DNA from: a virus
Taxonomy: Duplodnaviria > Caudoviricetes
DNA: 64,000 bases
IMG/VR virus record: IMGVR_UViG_3300024331_000231
Coordinates: 11,923-75,922 of that record
Strand: one strand, 5' to 3'
Shown: positions 3,069 through 32,142 of the stretch, in pieces
Layout of the letters: each line of letters starts with the position of its first letter
Numbering within the stretch: the stretch's first letter is position 1
Made by a program: the position numbers and the translations under genes
Notes under the pieces: generated by a model
The model's input: the letters and a program-made list of their open reading frames with translations, nothing else
The model's database searches: none
Told to the model about the DNA's origin: nothing

Positions 3069-4101
3069 AATTTCTATAATACTGCCTCATTATAAAACAT
3101 GGAAGATGAGTTTCTACACCATCCACCAGCTTCTGAAATGCCGGGGCCGTCATCAACTTGACATCTACGTTATAGACAACCATCCGCAAGATGGAAGCGG
3201 GCAAAAGCTAAAGGACTTTTTCGAGGATAAGATTAGGCTCTTCCCCTACCCTACCGACAAAATGCAATCACATGGGATCGCCTATGACCATATAGTTCCG
3301 CATTTGCGGACAGAACTTTTTGTCACCATAGAGAGCGATTCGTTTCCCCAAACGGGACACGAAAATTGGCTGGACTGGTATGAAACGCTTTCTAAACAAG
3401 GTTACGACAGCGCGGGTTCTCTAATGTGGCTTTCCGGTGGTCAGTTTGTCCATACTGCAGGTGCTTTCTACAAGAAAAGTGTTTGGCAGCAGGCGAAGCG
3501 CTATATCGACAATATCGAGTACTCCTACGTACCGAATGTCGCGATGAAAGACGGCTTCCCTTGCCATTTGATGGTGCATGATAGCGTCTTGGAACAATTC
3601 ATCTCCGGGGCTGGCGATCTTGTCGAACTGTCGCCGGAGTATAGGCAGTTTTCAGGCGAAGAATTGTCGAACCACATTGGAAAGAAAATAGCGGAATATT
3701 CGCCGATTGGTCGCGGCGTTTTCCACAACGGGATCGGTAACAGAGACGAGTCCTACCTCACCTACGCGCAGCGCAACCACGTAGAGGAAAGAAAAAATCT
3801 TTTGCTTGACAATAGCAAGCCCTTAATATGGCGGATGGGGTATGAACCGGGTCAATTTTTCTTTTACTGGATGCTGGCTAATGGACACCACATTTATGAG
3901 ATACCAACTGAAGTAAAATGGATGCCGGGGCGCGAAAACCAGCAGCAGGAAAGAACAATGATGGAGAACGGCTTTACCCACCTTTGGGCAGTGACCGCCT
4001 ATCATGGGGCTACGGACCCGGCGCTCATGGATATCATCCAGCACAAAAGTAATGTCATGGAAGAATTATATGACTCAATCCCTGCAAAAGAACGAATATG
4101 A
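3061..4101 (+). CDS. GT2-family glycosyltransferase
   Basis: KISIILPHY...IYVIDN...SHGIAYD...FVTIESDSFP (DxD-like). Confidence 0.75.
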   Translation: MAKISIILPHYKTWKMSFYTIHQLLKCRGRHQLDIYVIDNHPQDGSGQKLKDFFEDKIRLFPYPTDKMQSHGIAYDHIVPHLRTELFVTIESDSFPQTGHENWLDWYETLSKQGYDSAGSLMWLSGGQFVHTAGAFYKKSVWQQAKRYIDNIEYSYVPNVAMKDGFPCHLMVHDSVLEQFISGAGDLVELSPEYRQFSGEELSNHIGKKIAEYSPIGRGVFHNGIGNRDESYLTYAQRNHVEERKNLLLDNSKPLIWRMGYEPGQFFFYWMLANGHHIYEIPTEVKWMPGRENQQQERTMMENGFTHLWAVTAYHGATDPALMDIIQHKSNVMEELYDSIPAKERI

Positions 4102-6006: not shown

Positions 6007-7593
6007 ATGCACAAAAAGACACTTTACGGATCAGAAGCCAGGGAAAAACTACTTTCTGGCATCAACAAGATCAGCAACGCCGTCGCCGTCACGCTCGGCC
6101 CTCTCGGCCGAAATGTTTTCATCGCCCAGAGTTACGAAGCCAATTATGGCACTCACTCCTACCCTATCGAAGTCACCAAAGACGGCTACCGGGTCACCCA
6201 GCGGTTTGACTTGGAAGACTTCTTTGAGAAGGCCGGGGCGGTTATGGTTAAGGAATGCGCCCAAAAAAGCGTAGATCAGAGCGGCGACGGGACTACCACG
6301 ACGGTTATTCTAATGCGACACATGGTCATGGAGGGTATGAAAGCGGTCGAAGCCGGGGCCAACCCCGTCGAATTGAAACGGGAGATCGATGCGGCTATTA
6401 GCCGGGTCGTGGGACAACTTCGCAGCCGTTCGGTGCAAATCGGTCATGATATCGAAAAAATATACCAGATCGCGACCATCTCTGCCAATAATGATCCAGA
6501 GATTGGGCGCCTGATTGCTGACGCTTTCAAAAAAATTGGATACGAAGGTATGATCGATATCGAAGCCGGTAAAAGCGTCACGACGGAAATAAAAATAGCT
6601 TCCGGTTATCGGTTTGAGCGCAGTTGGGAAAGCCCTTTCTTTATTACCAATAAAGAGAAGCAAACGGTCGAATTTGAAGATCCATTGATCCTTCTATACA
6701 ACCGCGTCATTACTTCCAGCAAACAGATTCGCAGGGCTACCGAAATTGCGTTGAACTCCTCCAAACCGCTGCTTATTATTTGTCCCGGCGCAGAGACCGA
6801 AGGTCTGGCTATGCTGGCGGGTAATGCCTTCAAAGGGAATATTAAGTGCTGCGTCGTAAAAGCACCTGCGATCGGTGAAGCTCAGCGCATCGAAATGGAA
6901 GATCTGGCCATCCTCACAGGAGCCACGTTCATGGGGGACAATAGGGGAGAAGACGTGAAAGAAATTCTGCCCAAACAATTCGGAACAGCAAAAAAAGTGA
7001 TCGTTACCAAGGATGACACTACGATCATCGAAGGCGAAGCCAACAAACAGGCCTTGGAAGATTTACTCGTGGAACTCAGAATCAACAAAGCCCAAGCCAA
7101 AAATGAGGAAGAAGCGGCGCCCATCGAAAAAAGGATAGCCAAACTCACAGGGGGGGTCGCCGTAATCCAGGTAGGAGCCGCTACCGAAACCGAGATGAAA
7201 GAAAAGATGGACCGCTTCGACGACTCCGTTCGGGCCGTCAAGTCTGCAATAGCCGAAGGCTATACGGTAGGAGGGGGGACTGCGTTGCTTCGGATACGTT
7301 CGGGCAACAAGATCGTAGACTCTGCCATGGACAAACTGCTGCAGCAGATCTGTTGGAATGCTGGTCTGCGTCCCAAAAAATGGTGGCATTTCTGGAAATC
7401 CAAGCACGTCTTTGACCTGGTGAAGGAAGCTCGGGGAAATATCGGCTACAACGCCAAGACAGGTAGGATAGAGGACTTGATCGAGGCCGGCGTCATCGAT
7501 CCCGTAAAAGTCCTCCGCTGCGCCCTTCAGAACGCTGCCAGCAGCGCCGGGATGGTGCTGACATCCGAATGCTTAATCGTAGATAGTTATTAA
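6007..7593 (+). CDS. groEL: phage-encoded chaperonin GroEL (Cpn60)
   Basis: VAVTLGPLGRNV, SGDGTTTT, IYQIATISANND, VKAPAIGE, RIAKLTGGVAVIQVGAATETEMKEK, GGGTAL, GVIDPVKV. No GGM tail. Confidence 0.97.
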   Translation: MHKKTLYGSEAREKLLSGINKISNAVAVTLGPLGRNVFIAQSYEANYGTHSYPIEVTKDGYRVTQRFDLEDFFEKAGAVMVKECAQKSVDQSGDGTTTTVILMRHMVMEGMKAVEAGANPVELKREIDAAISRVVGQLRSRSVQIGHDIEKIYQIATISANNDPEIGRLIADAFKKIGYEGMIDIEAGKSVTTEIKIASGYRFERSWESPFFITNKEKQTVEFEDPLILLYNRVITSSKQIRRATEIALNSSKPLLIICPGAETEGLAMLAGNAFKGNIKCCVVKAPAIGEAQRIEMEDLAILTGATFMGDNRGEDVKEILPKQFGTAKKVIVTKDDTTIIEGEANKQALEDLLVELRINKAQAKNEEEAAPIEKRIAKLTGGVAVIQVGAATETEMKEKMDRFDDSVRAVKSAIAEGYTVGGGTALLRIRSGNKIVDSAMDKLLQQICWNAGLRPKKWWHFWKSKHVFDLVKEARGNIGYNAKTGRIEDLIEAGVIDPVKVLRCALQNAASSAGMVLTSECLIVDSY

Positions 7594-11259: not shown

Positions 11260-13350
11260 ATGGGCGTTGTTAACATCCAGGGGATCGATGTGAAGTATCG
11301 GGACTTATTTCCCGGTGAAACGGTGTTATATGCGGACCTGCCAAAAGATGAGCAGTATTTCAGGCGGATATCTCACCCTTTTTCAGACGATGAAATATCC
11401 GACCAGATTCAATTGGATTACGAAAGCAGAAAAGGGACATATACCGCTTTCCAAAGAGAATGGGTCGAACGCGAAGAAACGCGGATGACTTATGGCGAGG
11501 GAGTCTACGCCAGTATTAACGGTGTTCTCACTTATATTCCGGCGTCCTATTGGGGCTATATCAATTATTGGACCTTAGAGCATGACGATAAAGCAGATTA
11601 TCGGGAAGCTGATCGACTGTTCTTTCTTTTCATGGAGTATATTTATTTTGAAACTGACGTTTATGGCGTTACACGCGGGAAAGGCCGGCGTCAGGGCGCC
11701 TCTTCCTTAGGGTATTACTGGACCTGGTGGATATGCGGGAGGAAGGAAAACCAGATAGGGGGCTCCATTTCCTATAATGATGCAATAGCCCAGACCAACT
11801 TTCAGGGCATGTTCATGCTGGGCTTGACCTCCATGCTACCTTGTTTTTTACGCGACATTTCCAGCAAGTCGGACAATTTTGTTGACTTTGAGAAGCCAAG
11901 CGAGAAAGCCAAAAGAGGCGTTATCCACAAAAAGGAAGGGTTGAAAAGCTATGTAGATTTTTTGCCTAATGGCATCAATGCGTATGATGGAGGAAGGGCA
12001 ACTTGGTTGGTCCTGGATGAAACCGGGAAGTATGAGAAAATGAATATCAACACCTACTGGTCTAAGGTGTCTCCCACCTTAAAAATAGGGCGAAGAAAAG
12101 TCGGTATGGCGTACATGCCGACGACCGTCAATCCGCCAAAAAAAGGTGGAGAACATTACAAGCAATTTTGGGAAGAGGCAAATCAAAACGCCATAAATCC
12201 GGCAACGGGTGTTCCCTATGGCCTGAAGACTCCCCATAAAGTCATAAGATACTTCGTGCCAGCAAGTGAAGGATACGCAGGATGTATAGACAAATTTGGA
12301 GCAAGCGTAGTAGATGATCCGCCGGGACCGATTATGGGAAATGATGGAGAATGGATCACTAAAGGTGCCAGAACCGTTATTTTGGAGGAAAGGGCACTGA
12401 AAAAAGACGAGCAATTATTGGAACACAGAAGGGATTTTCCTTTGGACGAGTATGATATGTTTTCCTTCTACCTCGGGGCTTGTGAGTTTTCCGAAGCCAA
12501 TTTCATCGCCCAACTGCAGTGGCTCGAAGCCCATCCGGTATACCTGCGCAAATGTAGGTTATACCGCGAGAAAGTTACCAAAAAAAATATGTTCAATGCC
12601 CGGGAGGAGCGTTTCGACGAGATTAGGTTCATGGACGACGAAGCTGGCGGATGGCTACTTTTCGAACCGCCCGATCGGGAAAATATGTACTACCACCGCG
12701 GAAGGATCAGGCCGCTTCATACCGAACGATACTCGATCGGCGTGGACACGATCAAAAGTGGTTTCAGTTCCGGGGGATCGACCGCGACGATCTGCGTGTT
12801 TAAAAAATCACACATTGTAGAAGGAGTCGAAAAGGGACTCTATCCGGTCGCCTTGTACATGGGGAAACCCCGACTCATGCAGGACCTCTTCGAAGAGGTA
12901 TTAAAGGCCTGCATGTGGTATGGGGCGAAAGTCAACTTTGAGATTGACGCAGGAAGCTCTTACTATGACTATTTCCTGGCAAAAGATGCTGATCTATTTT
13001 TGGAATGGACACCGCGAGTAGCAATCGACCCCAGTAAAAAACATCCGCTGATCAAACCAGGAACGGAGAGCGGCAACCCTTATCAATTCGCGATGCAGCT
13101 GGAAGTAGCCAAGAAATATTTTGATGGAACGATACCGGATGGTTATAACGGGAATGTGCATCGTGTCGTCTTTCCGATTATCCTGAAGCAGGGGCTGGAA
13201 TACAATCATGCTGATAGAACAAAATCCGACGTCATCATTTCCCTTATGATGGCACTCTTGCCATGCTTTGGTTCGCTTGACTATTTGGACCCAGTTCCCC
13301 TTAAACCCAAACGTCTCCTTCCGACCTACAAACTAAAAATGGCAAGTTAA
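11260..13350 (+). CDS. terL: terminase large subunit
   Basis: Walker A KGRRQGAS, Walker B LVLDETGK, nuclease IGVDT...FEID...D.IISL. Confidence 0.92.
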   Translation: MGVVNIQGIDVKYRDLFPGETVLYADLPKDEQYFRRISHPFSDDEISDQIQLDYESRKGTYTAFQREWVEREETRMTYGEGVYASINGVLTYIPASYWGYINYWTLEHDDKADYREADRLFFLFMEYIYFETDVYGVTRGKGRRQGASSLGYYWTWWICGRKENQIGGSISYNDAIAQTNFQGMFMLGLTSMLPCFLRDISSKSDNFVDFEKPSEKAKRGVIHKKEGLKSYVDFLPNGINAYDGGRATWLVLDETGKYEKMNINTYWSKVSPTLKIGRRKVGMAYMPTTVNPPKKGGEHYKQFWEEANQNAINPATGVPYGLKTPHKVIRYFVPASEGYAGCIDKFGASVVDDPPGPIMGNDGEWITKGARTVILEERALKKDEQLLEHRRDFPLDEYDMFSFYLGACEFSEANFIAQLQWLEAHPVYLRKCRLYREKVTKKNMFNAREERFDEIRFMDDEAGGWLLFEPPDRENMYYHRGRIRPLHTERYSIGVDTIKSGFSSGGSTATICVFKKSHIVEGVEKGLYPVALYMGKPRLMQDLFEEVLKACMWYGAKVNFEIDAGSSYYDYFLAKDADLFLEWTPRVAIDPSKKHPLIKPGTESGNPYQFAMQLEVAKKYFDGTIPDGYNGNVHRVVFPIILKQGLEYNHADRTKSDVIISLMMALLPCFGSLDYLDPVPLKPKRLLPTYKLKMAS

Positions 13351-13698: not shown

Positions 13699-14856
13699 AT
13701 GGCAGAGCAAATTTCTCAAGAGCAAACGACAACAACAACGACCGTCGCTCCAGATCTGAAGGCAGAACTGGCTCAACAGATGGCCATTAGCCTCAATAAC
13801 GGTGTTGCGCCCGAGCCCGACGTACCTGCTGCTCCCACCACATCAGATCCCGCCGCTCCGACGACGACTGCCGATCCGTTTGGCCTCTTCAAAGAAAAAT
13901 TCGGTTATGAGTCACCGGAAGCAGCCGTCCAGGAAATAGAAAGTCTCCGCGCTTTTCGCGCAGCGCCGCCACCTGCTGAACTCAAATTCGAGAACGAGCA
14001 AAGCAAGGCAATAGCGGAGGCCCTGCAAGCAGGCCCTGAAAAATTCCATGAGGTCCATGCGATTCTGGATAAGATGATAAGAATAGACCAGTTGACTACG
14101 GGCGATCTGACGCACGAAGCAGCGGCAAATGTCATCAAACTGGGGATGCAACTCAAATATCCGGACCTCAAACCGGAGGAAATAAACTACAAGTTCAACA
14201 AAACATACGGGCTTCCACCTAAACCTGGTATGTTGCCAGCCGAAGATCAGGAGGAATTTGACGAACGCCTTCGCAACTGGGAAGCGGTCGTCGCTGATAA
14301 ACAGATGGAAATGATGATTGATGCGAAACTCGCCCGTCCTGATCTTGCTGCTGCCAAATCAAAACTCGTTATTCCCACTATAGCCCGGCAACAGGACGCC
14401 GATTTCCAAGAATGGCAGAAAACCGTTCAGGAAAACGATCGCCTCGCCGCCGAAACCACGCAAGTATACAAAGCCTTTACGCCCAAGTCGCTCGAAACCA
14501 AAGTCAATTTTGTGGACGAAGCCAGTAAGATTGCTTTTGAGTTCTACTTCGAGCCGGACCCGGAGAGCTTTAACCAGTCGGTAGACATGGTCACGGACAT
14601 CAACAAATTTTGGGAATCCTTCAAGACACCGGATGGAAGCCCGGATCGGATCGGATTTCTCAGAAGCATGTACATCGCCAAGAACTTTGAAAAGATGATC
14701 ACGCAAGCGATGATCCAGGCCAAAAACGCTACTATCAAAGCCAGCCTGCCGGATAATACTGCCGGCGGCCTTGTCCGGCAAATGCCGCCCACACAAGTTC
14801 CCAATGAACTGGATACATTGATGCGCGCTTCGCTAAAAGGGTACGGGGGATTTTAA
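13699..14856 (+). CDS. putative capsid scaffolding protein
   Basis: Acidic, helical, Pro/Thr-rich N-terminus; immediately upstream of the major capsid gene. Confidence 0.6.
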   Translation: MAEQISQEQTTTTTTVAPDLKAELAQQMAISLNNGVAPEPDVPAAPTTSDPAAPTTTADPFGLFKEKFGYESPEAAVQEIESLRAFRAAPPPAELKFENEQSKAIAEALQAGPEKFHEVHAILDKMIRIDQLTTGDLTHEAAANVIKLGMQLKYPDLKPEEINYKFNKTYGLPPKPGMLPAEDQEEFDERLRNWEAVVADKQMEMMIDAKLARPDLAAAKSKLVIPTIARQQDADFQEWQKTVQENDRLAAETTQVYKAFTPKSLETKVNFVDEASKIAFEFYFEPDPESFNQSVDMVTDINKFWESFKTPDGSPDRIGFLRSMYIAKNFEKMITQAMIQAKNATIKASLPDNTAGGLVRQMPPTQVPNELDTLMRASLKGYGGF

Positions 14857-24145: not shown

Positions 24146-25633
24146 ATGGCACAGATCGGCGAATTACCGGGCGGAGGGGCTCCATGGGGAGGGATCGTAA
24201 AAATTGATACCCCGTTCACCGACAGGGTGACCGCCGCTCTATTGGCCCAACAGCAGGACCGCCGGAAATACCAGCAGGAAACCACCTTGAAGGCTGATGA
24301 ACTCATGAACAAAGAACTGGCCAATGTCCGCAGTATCGACATGGACCAGGTCATGGACTCCTACGGCAAATGGAAGAACGTCGCCATGCAGATGCTGAAT
24401 CCCAAAGTTCAGGCCGATCCGCGAAAGTTCAATGAACTCCAGATACAAAAAAATGCTGCTCTGGGCCAAACGATGGCCGCCATCAACCAAAGCGCCCAGC
24501 TGAACACGCAGGCCAAAGAACTCTTGGGGGAGCGAAAAGCGAAACCCAATCTGTATAACGACGACTTTGGCGATCGGTTAGCCGCGCTCAATAATACGCC
24601 GCTCGATCAGGTGCGCAACCACCCTAAATATGGTGACTTAACAAACCCCGATAGCTTTCGATATCAAGGCTCCCAGACGGATTTTGCCAAACTGGAAGCA
24701 ACGGCTTCCGGGCAACCGAAGCCGGTGGAAGGAGCAGAGAAGGTAGAAAAGATCAGCGACTTGCAAACCCGCCGGACGCCTACTCTTTTTGGTAATACCC
24801 CGACCCAATTTTTCGAGAATATGAAAGGCCAGCTCGCCCAGCACATCCCGGGGCGGGATGCGGCGGCGGCATGGGAAGCCATTCCGGAGCAACAGCGGGC
24901 AGCCGTAGATCAGCAGTTTGCGGCGATTGCCCCCGAAAAATGGCTCGCTATGACCGGCACGGCGAAGCCCCAGGTTATTGCTCCGACTGATCCCAATAAT
25001 CCGACGGAGAACTATGCCGCTTACCGGGCCAAGATATACGCCATCAACGCAGCCCCGAAAGCAGGAACGCCAAAAGAGGAAACGAATCTGCAGGCGAAAA
25101 TGAACGTGCAGTTTGATCAGAGAAAGGTTATGGAAGCATTGCGGGAAGGAGATCGTGAAAAATTGGCGGATATAAAACACAGGTGGAAGACTTTAGATGT
25201 CAACGCCAAAGATGATGTCATGAATGGTGTTGTTCGAAGCATGCTGGAAGAGTCCAAACAGCATCCGCGCACCTATAGTATGGCTGGCGGGAAGGTCATC
25301 CAGCAATATGAGATCCCCGCTTCGACGATCCTGAAGAAAGAATTTGCCGTACCCGACGAAAAAGGACAGCCCATTTTGGTAGACGCTTTCCGGCTAAGTG
25401 AAGACGGACAATCGGTGACGCCCATTTTTTATGAACCGGGCCAGACCGGCGACAACCGCGCGGTGAATACCGAAGTCAGCAAACCGATGACGATCGGTGA
25501 ATTCAAGGCCCGCGCCGCCAAAGCGATGTTCGGAATTAAAGAATCCGCTAAAGAAACCAAAACTCAAGGGCAAGCCCCTTCAGCCGCGCCGGCGACGCCA
25601 GCAAAAGGAGGGTCCGGCATTAAATGGCAATAA
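24146..25633 (+). CDS. ejection/cargo protein 2
   Basis: 495-aa helical protein; synteny after the muzzle. Confidence 0.6.
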   Translation: MAQIGELPGGGAPWGGIVKIDTPFTDRVTAALLAQQQDRRKYQQETTLKADELMNKELANVRSIDMDQVMDSYGKWKNVAMQMLNPKVQADPRKFNELQIQKNAALGQTMAAINQSAQLNTQAKELLGERKAKPNLYNDDFGDRLAALNNTPLDQVRNHPKYGDLTNPDSFRYQGSQTDFAKLEATASGQPKPVEGAEKVEKISDLQTRRTPTLFGNTPTQFFENMKGQLAQHIPGRDAAAAWEAIPEQQRAAVDQQFAAIAPEKWLAMTGTAKPQVIAPTDPNNPTENYAAYRAKIYAINAAPKAGTPKEETNLQAKMNVQFDQRKVMEALREGDREKLADIKHRWKTLDVNAKDDVMNGVVRSMLEESKQHPRTYSMAGGKVIQQYEIPASTILKKEFAVPDEKGQPILVDAFRLSEDGQSVTPIFYEPGQTGDNRAVNTEVSKPMTIGEFKARAAKAMFGIKESAKETKTQGQAPSAAPATPAKGGSGIKWQ

Positions 25634-28600
25634 TGGCAGAAGAAGTCGACATACCAGAAGTGGCGCCTCCAGACGAAGGACAAACCGGAAACGGCCAACA
25701 ACCGCCCGACAAGGTAGCGCAATACTATGACTACCTTAAAAAGGCCGGGGCTGACGTGGCGCCATCGCTGGATTCGTTCAAAAAAACGCTATCCAACGAT
25801 TCGACCGCCCGGCAATATTATGGCTACCTCAAGGATAATAAGTTCGATGCACCGCCGACCTACGGCTCTTTTGCCAAAACGCTGGGTATTACTACCGAAC
25901 AGCCCGCTCCGCCGGAGCACCAGGTAGTACATACGCCTATACAGGACGTCCGGCACCTGAAGGATCTTGCCAACCAACCCGTCCGACAAAACGTGGTTGA
26001 TCCGCAGGGGGGGCTGACCGAGAATAACCAGGAGGACGTCGCCCGGAATAAAGGCTACCAGGACCAATACGAAAAAAGTGTGAACGATATCGCCTCTACC
26101 TGGGGAACCGATCCGAGAGCTACCAAAGCCACCTTGGAGGATTTTCCTGACATCCAGGACGAAAATTTATTGAAGAAGTATACGTCGCTTTACAAAGATA
26201 ATCCTGTAAACTACGGAAGGCTGAAAGACGGTACTGATATTCGGATGGCTGTATTTCGATCGGGACGACCGGACGCCGCCGCCGACGCTCACAATTTGAA
26301 TATGCTATTTACGCCTTCCCCCGCCGATACTTATGATGATTTGCAGCATTACATCGCCGGCGCGCAGGGAATTCTATCAAAGCATGGGTTGGGGCAACAG
26401 TATACGGAAAAATTAAAAAATGTATTCAGTCCCCTGATCAACACGCTTCAACCGGGACTATTGACGCAGTATTGGAACAGCGACGACAAAAAGCTCGGCC
26501 TTTCCGATTTTCAGTACGCAGGCCTGGAGACGGAAAAAATGTTCAACCCCGGGAAATATAAGCAGGATATGGCCATCATTCGCCAGAACCGGGGACTAGA
26601 CCAGCCGGGCGGTACGCCAATTCCGCAAGGGAAAGAAGGATACGCCTATGATCGTGGTGTTGAAAACGTCCTCTATGCCCTGGAGCACCAAGGAAGGCAA
26701 AACACGTCTCAATATATTTCGCAGCGCACGGCCGATCTTGGACCCCAGATCGATAAGGTAAAACAGCACTACCAGGACTATATCAATAGCACTACCGATC
26801 CGCAGATGCAGCAATATTTTTTCCAGGAATTCCAGAAAGACCCGTTGCTGCAAGAAGCTACCAAGCTCTACGAAGGGCAACAAGCCATTGACTATGCGCG
26901 ATCGGAAGACCAACGCCGTTTTCCGCTCAATTATGGCGATCAGGCTACCCGTGTCGTCAAAGATGCTCTTAGCAGCACTTCCGGAGTTATGGGCAGCGCT
27001 GGGGTGGCCGGTCAGCAGGTATTGCTTGGGGCCGGCGAGACTTCCGACAATACCCTGCGCTTCATCAAAAACACGTTTATCAATCTACTGGGTAGCGATC
27101 AACTGCAGGCCAAAAATGCGGCTGCCAATATCGGCCACCAGGCGCTGACCGAGCTGGCCGGCTACGAAGGAAGCGCCTTTTCTATGCAGCAATCGCCTAT
27201 CCTGATCGATGACCAGCTACAAAAGAGCATTCAAGAGGTTTTTGATAATCCGAACCTGACCACGATTCAAAAGAATCAAAAAGCTACTGACCTGATCATC
27301 AACCACGGAGATCAGATCAAGGTCAATCCAAATGCCGGCCAGCAGAATATTACCGGCAAAGCAGTGCTCTACACCGCGTCCAACACGATCGGCCAGATCC
27401 TCGGCATCGCGGACCAATCATTTTTGATGGGAGGGCTCGTGGGAGACGCATCCAAGGCCCAGCAAATGGCGAATGCGCTGGTGCCCATGTATGCCTCAAC
27501 CCAGAACCAGCTATATGAACAGTCGCTCGCCCGCGGCGACGAAAAGCCTCTCCTAAAGTCGCACCTGGATGCAGCAATCATCTCACTGGCTTCCCTGATC
27601 AATCCTGATATCAAAGTCGTCAAAGGAATGATCGGTGCTGAAACGGGCCTTGGAAAGCTTATTGCTGGCGTGGACGAGTCCACGTGGAACAAAGTGCTCA
27701 CGACCAACAAGCCGCTCGTTGACAAAATGGTCGCCGGAACAAAGGCGACTGCCCGGCAATTGGGTCTCGCAGGCCTGCAGTACGGACTCGTCGTTCCCGG
27801 CGCCCAGTATGTCGTCCACAAAAATGTGTTAAATGAAGATCCCAATCTCGGGGATGCGATAAAGGATGGTCTTATACAAACCGGGATTACAATGGCAGTT
27901 CCTGCACTGTTCCATGGCGTATGGGGCGGCGTCAACGCTACAAAAGTTAATCCCACTCAGAAATATGCACTGGTTGAAGCAGGCCTGCATCCCAAAGAAA
28001 ATATCGAACTCATCGATCAAATGGTTCAGCGGGGGCAGGTAACGCCGGATCGGGCAGACCAGATCAAAGACGTCATTAAAATGACGGGAAATATTTTAGA
28101 GCAAAGCGATCATGTTAAAGGGGATGGAACGCCCATGACTGAAAAAGAAGCGGCTGATCTCACATTTCAGATGCTGCGCAAGAAAGTGCTGGAAGGAAAG
28201 CTCAAAAATGCGCCCGACCCACAGAAGCCGGCGATTGAGGCCAAAATCCACGAAATCAACCAGGATATTTCGGACCTGCACACTTCGGATGCGGATAAGC
28301 AGAAAAGTGAACTCAACCAATTATTGACCGATCATCTTGACCTGTTATCGAAAGTCCCGACCATGGAAGGGACCGTTAAGGAAGCTATCAAACGCAATGA
28401 GCCGGAAGTCGTCTTCTCAGAAATTTACGACGCCGCAACCGAAACCAAAAACGAAGAAGGAAAAGAGGTTAGCAAGCGCCCAGAAGTGGAAGCAATTTAT
28501 GGCAAAAAACTGGTTGACAAGGCTTTCGAATTACATAACCAAAAACAACCCACTCATGGCCAAGAAGCCATCCCAGACAATGCCCAAGCCGGGAACCAAG

Positions 28601-31600
28601 GGCAAGTAACACCAGAACCATCGCAAGAAGGTGCGGCGCCTCCTACAACCACAACAGAGCCTGTGCCGGCCGCATCTTCTTTTACTCCAAATTCCGACAA
28701 AATACAACCTACCAACCAATTCCGTACGTGGAACCTGGGGGACATGGAAGGGAAGCCGGAGGACGAGGCAGCAAAAAAACACCTCGAAGGCGTGGTCCGT
28801 GCCTGGGATCAGCATCCGGCCGGCGAGACCGGCGGCGAAACCTTCGGCGCATTCGTGGATCGGGTCATTCCAGCCTTTGAAAAGGCGCTCCAGGAAGACC
28901 CCAATAATACGACCATTGTAACCCATAGCTCCGTCCTTAAAGCCATGCGCGTCTGGGAAGAAATGGGGCGCCCAGCAGTCGATAAACTGACTGGCGAACA
29001 GAAAAAACAGTTCGCCGACAAGTACAACGCCGCCGAAACCCACAACGGCGATCTGGAAACCTTCAAAGGGACGAACGGCGATATTCATGTCATCCGGCAC
29101 GGAGAGACAGAGGATAATGCAAAAAATAATTTCCGTTCGGGCAATACCAATCTGACAGATAAGGGAATGCAAGATGCCGCTAATGTCGGTCAGGAATTAA
29201 AGTCCAAGACCGGCGGAGACGTTCCGAAGATCATCACGTCGGACCTGCCACGGACGATTCATAGTTCAAATATTATAAACGATGCCTTATCAGAGTCTAG
29301 CCCAGGAACGCTGGGCGCACACGCAGGCGGGGACGCAGGCGCTGGGGGGACCCCAGAAGGTGAAGGAGTGGGACCAGGCCAGCAAGGGGAAGCATCTCCC
29401 GGCCAAACTGGCGGGGAAGGGGAGGGGCAAGAGCCACCAGGCGGCCCTGGTGGGACGAAAGTAGCCGCTGGAGGCGAAGCAGGTTCGCAAACGGGCATTG
29501 CCGAACGAGTTAAGAAAGAACGGGAAGCCTCGGCTGGCGTCAAGGCCCCCGAACCGGGGACTGGCTTGTCGGTCGAAGCGGGAGTCGAACGAGGAAGGAC
29601 GTTACTAAGGGGAGGGGCTGATCCAGAAAGGATAATGGAAGCGTTTGAAACCGGCAAAGGCTTAATAGCCGACGATGTAAGTGTCGTTCGCGCTCAACTG
29701 GAACAACTAGCCAAAGCGACAGATGCGGCTATCGAGGAACATGGAGAAGAAAGTCCGGAGGCTGAAGATGCCAGAAAAGCCGAAAGTGATTGGGCGGCGC
29801 GTATTCAGCCCATGCAGACAGAGTGGGCCGAAATTGGTCGGCGACAACAAGGAAGCACCGATTTGGACACAGGAACTGTCACTTCCATAAAAAGAGCTTT
29901 TAAGGAACAAAGCGGCAAGCCTTTGACTGACAAACAAGCCGAAACTGCTCAAAATCTTCACGCTAGAATAAAAGAACAAGAAACAACCATTTCAGATTTA
30001 CAAAAGAGATTGGATGACATTAACAATAGCGATCAGTCAAAAAAATCGACGACTTTTTCAGACAAAGCTAAAAAAGCCGCAAATCTTGTTCGGAAATTAA
30101 AGAATAAAGAATTCACTTTTAAGGACAGTGACGGCAACGACATTCCGGTTCATAAAATGGGCGTAAGCTGGAATGATATTGTAGAATTAGGAGCAAAGGC
30201 CATTGAAAAAACTGGTCAAATTGCTGATGGAATAGCCGCTATTATAGAGAAAGTAAAAGAAGCTGATTGGTATAAAGGGCTTTCTGCAGAAGATCAGAAA
30301 AGATTTGCAAAAGAATTAGAAGACCACTATACTGGTATTGCAGATAAAAAAGAAGCGGCACGAATTAAAGCCCTCGAAAAGCAACTGGAAGAGCTGCAAG
30401 CCGGGAAAGTAAAAACCAAAACCGAACGGCAGCAAAGTGCTAGGGAACAAGCTCTGAAAGATCAAATATTCCAAGCTAAACAAAATTTGGGTCTAATTAA
30501 ACCTAAGGGAGCGCCCACACCTAAGACTCAAATTAATAAACCCAAAATTGATATTGCCACACATTTTATCGATAAAAAAGACAACAATTTCACACAGGAG
30601 GAGTCAAAAGCAATTTGGGAACACACGAAGGCTGTAATGGAGAATGGCAAAACTGATTTTCACGATGTGATTAAGCAGGTTGCAATGGATAGCGGCTTAT
30701 CTTCCGAACAGGTCCGCCGAGCCATTGCACAACCCAAAGGAGCAAAAGTTGTCACCGATAAGATGTATGCGGCCATGTATAAAAGAAATCAGATTATACA
30801 ACAGGCCAAAGCCTGGGTTAAATCAGCCGACCAATCCCCCGCTAAAAAGTTTTGGAAAGCAGTGATTGCAGGTCCGGCGGCCATAGTAACTGCACTGCAC
30901 GGGAGCGTAGCGCCCATAACGCATGTGGGAGGTGATCTATACCGGCCTTTCAATTGGAAGAGCTATTTCAATTTCATGTTGAATTCTTACCAATATTCGT
31001 TCGGGGGTTTAACGGAAAAAGGAAAAGCAAGATACGAAAAGGACATGGGCGATTTAGTTCGCGATCCTATGTTTATAATGGCTAAAAAGGCTGGAGTTAA
31101 ATGTGATCCCACCGATTTAAGTGGAGACGATTACTCTAAATATCAGGGGATTTGGGGCAAATTGGCAAAAATGGGTGAAAGAGGATTTAATGCCATGAAG
31201 CCTTATAGGCTGGAGCAGTTTAAGAAAATGTATAATGGACTTTCGGATCAAGCAAAAGGAAATTCCGATGTAATTAAGACCATCGCAGAAATAGCGAATC
31301 TTTCTTCCGGCACAACAAGCGTAAAAACAGGCAAGTATACCGATGTGGTGGTTTTTGCTCCTAAACTGGTCACTTCTCAATATCAAAGAATTTTTTCGGA
31401 ACCCGCCAAGGCGGTAGGCACATTCGCGAAATGGGGGGCATCCCTTGCTTCTCCGAATAAGATTGCAGCCCCGACTGATGCACAAAAATTGCAGGCCAAA
31501 ATGGTCGCAAGACATACAGGCGAAATGATGGCTACCTATATGATTGGCCTTGCTGCTAACCAGGCTATATTGACGATGAACGGTTCTAAACAAAAAATAA

Positions 31601-32142
31601 ATTTCACTAATCCTCTGGAGCCGGACTGGATGAAATTTAAAATTGTAGGAAAAGACGTTGACGCCTCCGGCGGAATGAATTCCTCTTTGCGATTCGTGGC
31701 TTCATTGATGAAAGAAGGATTACGTGCAAACGGAATTATAAAAACAGACGAGAAAGGGAAGCCGGGAGACGTTGAAGGAAGGAAGATATTACAGCAAGCT
31801 GCCAATAAATTATCTCCACTTGCGGGAGACGTGAAAGAACTATTCAGCACAACAGATAATAACGGCAATCCTCTGCCTTGGTCTTCAGTAAAGCCGTCTG
31901 CAGGAAGAGAAAAATTAACATGGGCTGAATACTTTGAAAGTAAATCTCCCATTTTCATATCAGAAGGATTCAAAGCGTTTAACGACGGAGCTAAGTCGAA
32001 CGGGGTGCCCGACGCTAAATTAAATAATTATTTAGAAGGCGTCGTAATAGGAATATTGGCCGGGACAACAGGAGCGCATATTACCCCTGAAATAGCAAAA
32101 AAATCCGGCAGCCGAATGCCTAACGGAAAAACATCTCAATGA
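25633..32142 (+). CDS. giant ejection/cargo protein (~2170 aa) with a circularly permuted histidine-phosphatase domain
   Basis: Largest ORF; TAATG coupling suggests start 25633 (track 25624). RTWNLG/GGETF/VTHSS precede RHG/TSDLPR at about 28700-29290. Confidence 0.7.
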   Translation: MAEEVDIPEVAPPDEGQTGNGQQPPDKVAQYYDYLKKAGADVAPSLDSFKKTLSNDSTARQYYGYLKDNKFDAPPTYGSFAKTLGITTEQPAPPEHQVVHTPIQDVRHLKDLANQPVRQNVVDPQGGLTENNQEDVARNKGYQDQYEKSVNDIASTWGTDPRATKATLEDFPDIQDENLLKKYTSLYKDNPVNYGRLKDGTDIRMAVFRSGRPDAAADAHNLNMLFTPSPADTYDDLQHYIAGAQGILSKHGLGQQYTEKLKNVFSPLINTLQPGLLTQYWNSDDKKLGLSDFQYAGLETEKMFNPGKYKQDMAIIRQNRGLDQPGGTPIPQGKEGYAYDRGVENVLYALEHQGRQNTSQYISQRTADLGPQIDKVKQHYQDYINSTTDPQMQQYFFQEFQKDPLLQEATKLYEGQQAIDYARSEDQRRFPLNYGDQATRVVKDALSSTSGVMGSAGVAGQQVLLGAGETSDNTLRFIKNTFINLLGSDQLQAKNAAANIGHQALTELAGYEGSAFSMQQSPILIDDQLQKSIQEVFDNPNLTTIQKNQKATDLIINHGDQIKVNPNAGQQNITGKAVLYTASNTIGQILGIADQSFLMGGLVGDASKAQQMANALVPMYASTQNQLYEQSLARGDEKPLLKSHLDAAIISLASLINPDIKVVKGMIGAETGLGKLIAGVDESTWNKVLTTNKPLVDKMVAGTKATARQLGLAGLQYGLVVPGAQYVVHKNVLNEDPNLGDAIKDGLIQTGITMAVPALFHGVWGGVNATKVNPTQKYALVEAGLHPKENIELIDQMVQRGQVTPDRADQIKDVIKMTGNILEQSDHVKGDGTPMTEKEAADLTFQMLRKKVLEGKLKNAPDPQKPAIEAKIHEINQDISDLHTSDADKQKSELNQLLTDHLDLLSKVPTMEGTVKEAIKRNEPEVVFSEIYDAATETKNEEGKEVSKRPEVEAIYGKKLVDKAFELHNQKQPTHGQEAIPDNAQAGNQGQVTPEPSQEGAAPPTTTTEPVPAASSFTPNSDKIQPTNQFRTWNLGDMEGKPEDEAAKKHLEGVVRAWDQHPAGETGGETFGAFVDRVIPAFEKALQEDPNNTTIVTHSSVLKAMRVWEEMGRPAVDKLTGEQKKQFADKYNAAETHNGDLETFKGTNGDIHVIRHGETEDNAKNNFRSGNTNLTDKGMQDAANVGQELKSKTGGDVPKIITSDLPRTIHSSNIINDALSESSPGTLGAHAGGDAGAGGTPEGEGVGPGQQGEASPGQTGGEGEGQEPPGGPGGTKVAAGGEAGSQTGIAERVKKEREASAGVKAPEPGTGLSVEAGVERGRTLLRGGADPERIMEAFETGKGLIADDVSVVRAQLEQLAKATDAAIEEHGEESPEAEDARKAESDWAARIQPMQTEWAEIGRRQQGSTDLDTGTVTSIKRAFKEQSGKPLTDKQAETAQNLHARIKEQETTISDLQKRLDDINNSDQSKKSTTFSDKAKKAANLVRKLKNKEFTFKDSDGNDIPVHKMGVSWNDIVELGAKAIEKTGQIADGIAAIIEKVKEADWYKGLSAEDQKRFAKELEDHYTGIADKKEAARIKALEKQLEELQAGKVKTKTERQQSAREQALKDQIFQAKQNLGLIKPKGAPTPKTQINKPKIDIATHFIDKKDNNFTQEESKAIWEHTKAVMENGKTDFHDVIKQVAMDSGLSSEQVRRAIAQPKGAKVVTDKMYAAMYKRNQIIQQAKAWVKSADQSPAKKFWKAVIAGPAAIVTALHGSVAPITHVGGDLYRPFNWKSYFNFMLNSYQYSFGGLTEKGKARYEKDMGDLVRDPMFIMAKKAGVKCDPTDLSGDDYSKYQGIWGKLAKMGERGFNAMKPYRLEQFKKMYNGLSDQAKGNSDVIKTIAEIANLSSGTTSVKTGKYTDVVVFAPKLVTSQYQRIFSEPAKAVGTFAKWGASLASPNKIAAPTDAQKLQAKMVARHTGEMMATYMIGLAANQAILTMNGSKQKINFTNPLEPDWMKFKIVGKDVDASGGMNSSLRFVASLMKEGLRANGIIKTDEKGKPGDVEGRKILQQAANKLSPLAGDVKELFSTTDNNGNPLPWSSVKPSAGREKLTWAEYFESKSPIFISEGFKAFNDGAKSNGVPDAKLNNYLEGVVIGILAGTTGAHITPEIAKKSGSRMPNGKTSQ
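29282..29464 (+). CDS. small basic protein overprinted in the +1 frame inside the giant cargo gene
   Basis: MPYQSLAQERWAH...KVKEWDQASKGKHLPAK resembles the recurrent phage MP(F/Y)KS.AQ.R...EW....KGK.LP family; AT-rich leader with A at -3. Confidence 0.6.
   Translation: MPYQSLAQERWAHTQAGTQALGGPQKVKEWDQASKGKHLPAKLAGKGRGKSHQAALVGRK

Follow-up and report, generated by a model that had tools for sequence, protein, structure and literature searches.

Can a stretch of phage DNA that encodes the linker of a giant virion-module protein also encode, in a second reading frame, a small protein of its own? The question is raised by a 64,000-nucleotide stretch (the window in what follows; positions 11,923 to 75,922 of IMG/VR virus record IMGVR_UViG_3300024331_000231) of the genome of an uncultured soil phage, whose 75.9-kb record is rated complete. 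Inside a 2172-amino-acid (aa) open reading frame (ORF) of the window lies a second ORF of 60 codons, which begins with an ATG at 29282, ends with a TAG at 29462-29464 and is read in the +1 register relative to the long ORF. A sequence-only reading made beforehand had pointed to this ORF within a Gly/Glu/Pro linker, and the translation is exactly as quoted there. Based on homology to free-standing phage genes and on the substitutions seen in both frames, we propose that the short ORF is very probably a selected coding gene that sits in the +1 frame of the giant virion-protein gene, which we call its host gene. The features concerned are the following, in window coordinates.

29282..29464, + strand: predicted nested small gene, 60 codons plus TAG, called from homology and substitution pattern
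25624..32142, + strand: host gene for the 2172-aa virion-module protein, with His_Phos_1 before the linker and a C-terminal module common to its relatives
28699..29289, + strand: histidine-phosphatase domain of the host protein (His_Phos_1, E 2e-22), ending at the nested start
29281..29496, + strand: acidic Gly/Glu/Pro/Gln low-complexity linker of the host protein (about residues 1220-1291), the -1 reading of the small gene
29257..29281, + strand: A/T-rich leader ahead of the nested ATG, carrying A at -3 and a nested-frame TAA at 29276-29278

The virion module around the host gene contains genes for the portal, the large terminase (TerL) and virion structural proteins, and the host protein is presumed to be a head-interior or ejected cargo protein. 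The isoelectric point is 4.05 for the linker in the host frame vs 10.5 for the nested peptide.

What the nested frame encodes

The open frame alone carries little information. T makes up 8.7% of the overlapped stretch and all six frames are open there, for 49 to 144 codons. When the gene was shuffled synonymously with the host protein kept, a +1 ATG ORF of at least 60 aa was found in 55% of trials under gene-wide codon usage and in 13% under local codon usage. The openness of the nested frame is expected by chance and the case therefore rests on what this frame encodes. The giant gene contains five other +1 ATG ORFs of 55 to 84 aa (window 25727-25927, 26894-27148, 27866-28042, 28397-28609 and 29723-29890), and the shuffles suggest that ORFs of this sort are commonly produced by chance.

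What the frame encodes is a member of a widespread family of small phage proteins. A phmmer search of 5.8 billion proteins with the nested peptide matched three proteins (P0003-P0005) of 48-57 aa with E between 1.4e-12 and 8.7e-12 and 70-76% identity over the first ~44 residues. On their contigs all three are ordinary free-standing genes flanked by other genes, and the frame equivalent to the host frame contains one or two stops (1-5 stops across the free-standing copies). An exhaustive profile search retrieved 718 clusters at E<=1e-3, including 204 at E<=1e-10. Among the clusters listed, about half are small proteins with the domain at the initiator Met and the remainder carry the domain in frame within 300-1000-aa proteins. 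The usual form of the family is thus a free-standing 45-70-aa phage gene or an in-frame module of a multi-enzyme phage protein.

Scored against a profile built from 50 non-nested members, the nested peptide reaches 88.7 bits (E 1.3e-29). It keeps all of the near-invariant columns read from a 54-member alignment, namely M1, S5, Q8, W11, H13, G17, A20, L21, G23, V27, E29, W30, L39 and P40. The nested ATG aligns with profile position 1, and the 60-aa product ends in a basic tail as is found in the family. The likeness to a widespread free-standing phage family, which the sequence-only reading had suggested, is therefore borne out by the phmmer matches and by a profile that contains no nested copies.

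These results bear directly on the alternative of a chance ORF without coding meaning in a T-poor, purine-rich low-complexity linker. The six open frames, the 13-55% of shuffles with an equally long ORF and the five similar +1 ORFs in the same gene all speak for it. Chance is nonetheless refuted by the homology to free-standing proteins at E ~1e-12 in a search of billions of sequences, and further opposed by the score against an independent family profile and by the conservation of, and selection on, the nested frame described below. We give this alternative practically no weight.

The genomic setting of the family is varied. In the in-frame fusions the domain is found beside NUDIX, VTC, GNAT, PI3/PI4-kinase-like, SAM-lyase-like, 2H-phosphoesterase-like, SLT, DUF5661 and DUF6321 domains. 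Free-standing copies are often the last gene of an operon, placed just after a very large gene (L047, L066, L067), while others are found among replication genes (L001). In L047, for example, a free-standing copy of a sister subfamily at 3845-3979 (-) has a GGAGG Shine-Dalgarno site and starts within a TAATG that also contains the stop codon of a 951-aa gene; it closes the operon and shows five stops in the host-equivalent frame. The neighbours of the free-standing copies in L047, L066, L067, L001 and L002 have no similarity to window proteins.

The window subfamily, marked by Trp-Ala-His-Thr and Glu-Trp-Asp motifs, is absent from Pfam and PHROGs. DUF3008 and DUF6321 of Pfam match neither the peptide nor any of the 54 family members, and the window peptide has no match to phrog_1375 at E<=10. 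Sister-subfamily copies, both nested (L014, L022) and free-standing (L047), match phrog_1375 with E of 5e-7 to 5e-6, and the sister subfamily also matches phrog_5320; both are groups of small phage proteins of unknown function. What phrog_1375, phrog_5320 and DUF3008 share with the family is that they are short phage proteins with a Met-Pro-aromatic-x-Ser start followed by a Gln-containing helix; in the Atlas, DUF3008 clusters are the nearest among named clusters (0.81). A tblastn search of 50,697 GenBank phages returned no match for the window peptide, the linker DNA, the giant protein, the capsid-like protein or the nested peptide of the scaffold-position host introduced below. This set thus offers no cultured relative whose annotation could be compared. 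Hypothetical genes of Mycobacterium and Gordonia phages in the same set were matched weakly (E 0.02-0.5) by the sister-subfamily peptide. Our literature searches found no description of the family, nor of embedded genes in phage virion genes for scaffold or cargo proteins.

Conservation and selection across host genes

If the small ORF is a gene, it should be found in relatives of the giant protein that were collected regardless of the nested frame. Three contigs, L005, L006 and L061, were fetched by the host protein alone, and all relatives found in this way have a +1 ATG small gene at the same linker. In L005, where the host is 54% identical, this is a 58-aa ORF whose product has 85% identity with the window peptide across 39 residues. 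In L006 (host 55% identical) a 62-aa ORF of the sister subfamily occupies the same place. L061, which is 67% identical in the phosphatase region, has a 64-aa ORF at the linker (L061:3770-3964, +). We rejected this last ORF as a member of the family, given that it scores 0.8 bits against the family profile and shuffles reach 9.5; it is 50% identical to the product of a free-standing 57-aa gene, L064:627-800 (+). The linker of L061 thus holds a small gene of another family, and the linker slot thus seems able to take different nested genes. L008 encodes a 1205-aa protein homologous to the C-terminal half of the window protein, and the nested gene lies ~130 codons into it. All nested copies have the +1 register.

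The window host protein is homologous to the hosts of L006, L055 and L008, and a histidine-phosphatase domain precedes the nested gene in L005, L006, L014, L055 and L061 as it does in the window. In the window copy of this domain (28699-29289) the RHG-containing half is placed after the other half, whereas the elements of L014 align in the usual order; the arrangement in the window is consistent with a circular permutation.

Nested copies are not restricted to relatives of the giant protein. With a degenerate DNA pattern that describes how nested copies begin, 51 IMG/VR contigs were collected, a sample that is by construction chosen by the nested frame. In 49 of the 51 a long ORF covers the small ORF, which is read in its +1 frame. 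Many of the covering ORFs are ~400-420 aa in length; others have 833-978, 1414, 1842, 2008 or over 3235 aa. The longest, a giant ORF at L042:2-9706 (-) with the nested gene at about codon 1117, is unrelated to the window giant protein outside the overlap. All-against-all BLASTP separates the hosts into at least four groups, among which similarity is detectable only in the overlapped segment.

One of these groups consists of a ~410-aa protein encoded between the portal and capsid-like genes, the usual place of the scaffolding protein (e.g. L029:5956-7161). To this group we applied a second sampling that is blind to the nested frame. The conserved C-terminal motifs of the 410-aa protein identified at least 548 IMG/VR relatives, of which 80 were fetched (L069-L148). 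In 78 of the 80 a +1 ATG ORF of 35-52 aa belonging to the family is found at host residues 47-74 (near codon 65). In the remaining two, L093 and L141, the whole segment is absent and the +1 frame is full of stops. The sequence-only reading had named the ATG and the open +1 frame in homologues as a check on its proposal, and both are kept in L005, L006, L008 and L061 as well as in these 78 hosts.

The window has its own ORF in the scaffold position (13699-14856, 385 aa), which contains no nested copy of the small gene. Its homology to the 410-aa hosts is not established, the similarity being weak though positionally matching (hhalign probability 9%). A gene for a GroEL-like chaperonin is located at window 6007-7593, just upstream of the portal gene (phrog_5725, E 4e-126).

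The substitutions separate the two frames. The tests that follow score differences as independent single changes against a consensus or partner sequence, with shared ancestry uncorrected. Over 39 codons the window and L005 show 22 differences, of which 13 are silent in the nested frame only, 2 are silent in the host frame only and 7 change both products. Nested-silent changes make up 59% of the differences compared to an expected 21% (P ~1.5e-4), and host-silent changes fall below expectation. Amino-acid identity is correspondingly 33/39 in the nested frame vs 23/40 in the host frame. The same nested-silent asymmetry was observed in four further pairs, outside the search pattern, with P values of 0.002-0.05.

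Among the scaffold-position hosts, a first subgroup of 23 distinct sequences shows 28 of 42 possible nested-silent changes vs 10 of 178 others (Fisher P 5.6e-17). For host-silent changes no enrichment is seen (4/44 vs 34/176), and the mean column identity of the nested frame is 0.95, vs 0.80 for the host frame. The second subgroup, which is more diverged, has counts of 28 of 35 vs 101 of 175 (P 0.0095), again with no enrichment of host-silent changes. The nested-silent effect is large and is repeated in independent groups. The host frame in the overlap is kept stop-free, and no constraint on it at the amino-acid level is seen in the substitution tests. In these tests it is the nested frame, rather than the host frame, on which purifying selection is seen.

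This result argues against a decaying relic, that is, a former in-frame domain or separate gene that is now out of frame and untranslated, with constraint left on the host frame only. In-frame fusions of the domain do exist elsewhere, the C-terminal tail differs between the window and L005, and the site in L061 lacks the small-protein family of the window, all of which would suit a relic. Such decay is already contradicted by the concentration of substitutions at nested-silent sites without enrichment of host-silent ones. In addition, the nested frame stays at 85% identity over 39 residues with hosts down to 54%, and the ATG and open frame are kept in nearly all of the independently sampled homologues of another host. 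We regard a relic as very unlikely.

The host frame could in turn be questioned, with the 2172-aa ORF being in truth three genes, the small one and a neighbour on either side, that appear as one through an accident of composition or an assembly error. A T-poor stretch can indeed keep a frame open by chance, and in L008 the C-terminal half is a separate 1205-aa protein. The L008 host frame, however, starts ~130 codons ahead of the nested gene and reads through it. The host frame is stop-free across the small gene in nearly all nested copies, as opposed to the 1-5 stops in free-standing copies, and without a stop the upstream reading must continue. As for assembly, near-identical sequence is present in several soil metagenome runs, and contigs from four other soil runs show no difference and no variant across the parts of the region that they cover; this letter-for-letter match indicates that the two-frame relation is no assembly error. 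The chance that three separate genes are involved appears slim, slightly more so than that of a relic.

Start site and mode of translation

How would the nested gene be translated? In this phage a Shine-Dalgarno core precedes 3 of 33 genes and the leaders are A/T-rich, which fits a Bacteroidota-like host. The bases upstream of the nested ATG and the A at -3 are as the sequence-only reading had quoted them, and the leader fits the Bacteroidota style that was suggested for it. A position-specific start-context score, trained on 33 likely starts, gives 3.16 for the nested ATG compared to a mean of 4.74 (sd, standard deviation, 2.85) for real starts, and 3.2% of 805 internal ATGs score as high. 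The predicted unpaired probability is 0.64 at the nested start, 0.54 at real starts and 0.44 at internal ATGs, of which 3% reach 0.64. A nested-frame stop precedes the ATG by one codon in the window and by 1-12 codons in nearly all other copies. Finally, the ATG aligns with the initiator Met of the free-standing members in every host-ascertained copy. Start context, accessibility, the upstream stop and the Met alignment together favour independent initiation over entry by frameshifting.

Entry by frameshifting would mean that ribosomes translating the giant gene slip +1 in the A/T-rich stretch, yielding a shortened isoform with the small domain at its end; in that case the nested frame would be under selection without separate initiation. 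The nested starts of the window, L005, L006 and L008 each follow an A-rich run, and the domain is found in frame within many larger phage proteins and so works when fused. We did not see a conserved slippery heptamer, and the upstream nested-frame stop, a single codon away in the window, leaves almost no room for slipping. Moreover, the in-frame fusions have no Met at the position where the nested ATG aligns with the free-standing initiator. A programmed frameshift thus seems quite unlikely, though it is the least improbable of the rival explanations for the nested frame.

Independent initiation would place the synthesis of the small protein on the late messenger RNA that also encodes the giant protein, starting at its own AUG. 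The A/T-rich and unstructured leader would suit a bacterial host that does not rely on Shine-Dalgarno pairing.

Several observations weigh against a selected nested gene with its own start, besides the chance-level openness of the frame, the uncorrected ancestry in the substitution tests and the ability of the domain to work when fused. No RNA run is listed among the sequencing runs that contain the region. The start-context score of the nested ATG lies at the 30th percentile of real starts. The models of Pfam and PHROGs return no match at E<=10 for the window peptide and its closest relatives. The last 18 residues of the peptide (43-60), a basic tail, are not conserved relative to L005. The nested gene is also dispensable in some lineages, being missing from two of the 80 scaffold-position hosts. 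Taking these points into account, we still consider a selected coding gene at 29282..29464 very probable on the sequence evidence.

Origin, function and known systems

The nested family is old and widespread. The host segment varies, is of low complexity and accounts for all the similarity that unrelated hosts show. From this we infer that the linker is the younger of the two, laid over the small gene. The small gene would then be the older reading and the acidic linker its -1 frame, in which the absence of stops is maintained to connect two protein modules within one polypeptide. The sequence-only reading had described the linker as a by-product of the nested gene. This is upheld insofar as the substitutions leave the nested product intact and alter that of the host frame, and as free-standing copies contain host-frame stops; the order of events has to be revised, with an existing small gene over which the linker was laid. 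Nesting through the simple loss of an overlapping stop was rejected as a route, as the overlap in L047 puts the small gene in +2 and not in +1. The constant +1 register and a recurring host-frame motif may reflect either one two-frame cassette that spread by recombination or the only register that can be kept stop-free.

What the protein does is less clear than that it is encoded. AF2, run with the family alignment, predicts a model with a predicted local distance difference test (pLDDT) score of 82, with block means of 89-94 for residues 1-40 and helices at residues 6-12, 15-21 and 24-34. Residues 1-42 form the conserved, predicted three-helix domain and the Lys/Arg tail is disordered in the model. 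Cys is absent from the peptide, and its N-terminus lacks a hydrophobic segment. When the AF2 model was used in fold searches, no match reached E<=0.001 with Foldseek on PDB, the rows from BFVD were weak and the best Z in the wide VIA-align search was 2.4. A helix-turn-helix (HTH) fold was not called, the Atlas structure rows (HTH_17, MerR) being too weak with TM (template modelling) scores of 0.45-0.49.

The sequence-only reading had proposed a DNA-associated or cargo-chaperoning role. Fusion partners and gene positions may point to a role with head-interior or delivered proteins, and the small protein may act alongside such proteins, whether scaffold or ejected cargo. That it would do so, most likely by binding nucleic acid or the capsid interior, is a tentative suggestion, doubtful enough to be the weakest step of our reading.

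A bolder possibility combines origin and function. The acidic linker and the basic small gene may form one two-frame cassette that recombines, always in +1, among unrelated head-interior genes, here comprising the giant cargo proteins, the scaffold-position protein and at least two other host families. The small protein would bind the linker or adjacent DNA and thereby serve as a self-encoded packaging adaptor or chaperone that sets cargo loading into the capsid, from a slot that could be refilled as in L061. We consider this improbable as a whole, clearly more so than the binding role alone.

If the nested gene is real, a small-protein family has been hidden in the +1 frame of virion-interior genes. 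Standard gene callers forbid nesting, with the consequence that such genes are missing from catalogues and that the linker is mistaken for an evolving low-complexity region. Overprinting would have run opposite to its usual direction, with an old gene swallowed by the fusion of its neighbours. Free-standing, in-frame fused and nested copies of one domain would provide a clean comparative set for the origin of dual coding. The family would also add a small protein, so far unstudied, with a probable role in head assembly or in the delivery of DNA or cargo.

To our knowledge, fully embedded out-of-frame genes are thought to be rare in tailed phages, and the Rz/Rz1 spanin pair is the textbook case. 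In lambda Rz/Rz1 (18.5/18.7 of T7) a larger gene contains the whole of a small one, which is read from the same strand in the +1 frame, has its own start and is often missed by gene callers. The window ORF shares this arrangement, being wholly inside a larger same-strand gene, in +1 and with its own start. Rz1, a lipoprotein of the outer membrane, carries a signal sequence and a lipobox and works with the product of its host gene in lysis. By contrast, the nested protein described here is predicted to be soluble, basic and three-helical and has neither signal sequence nor lipobox Cys. Its host gene encodes a virion-interior protein, in which the overlap falls on a disordered linker and not on a functional domain.

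A second comparison is with the overprinted genes of small viruses, such as B, K and E of phiX174 (PMC8227390). The likeness is that of two frames of one stretch, one strongly constrained and the other compositionally biased or disordered. In classical overprinting a new and restricted protein is born inside an older gene, whereas the nested gene of the window appears to be old and widespread, with most of the 718 clusters free-standing, and the linker younger. Furthermore, the window belongs to a 76-kb double-stranded DNA phage, for which a need for compression is not obvious.

The third comparison is with the polyvalent proteins of phages and conjugative elements, which are built by in-frame domain fusions (Iyer et al. 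2017, PMC5512222). Giant multi-module proteins of the virion module with enzymatic domains are common to both, and the in-frame partners of the small domain come from the same repertoire.

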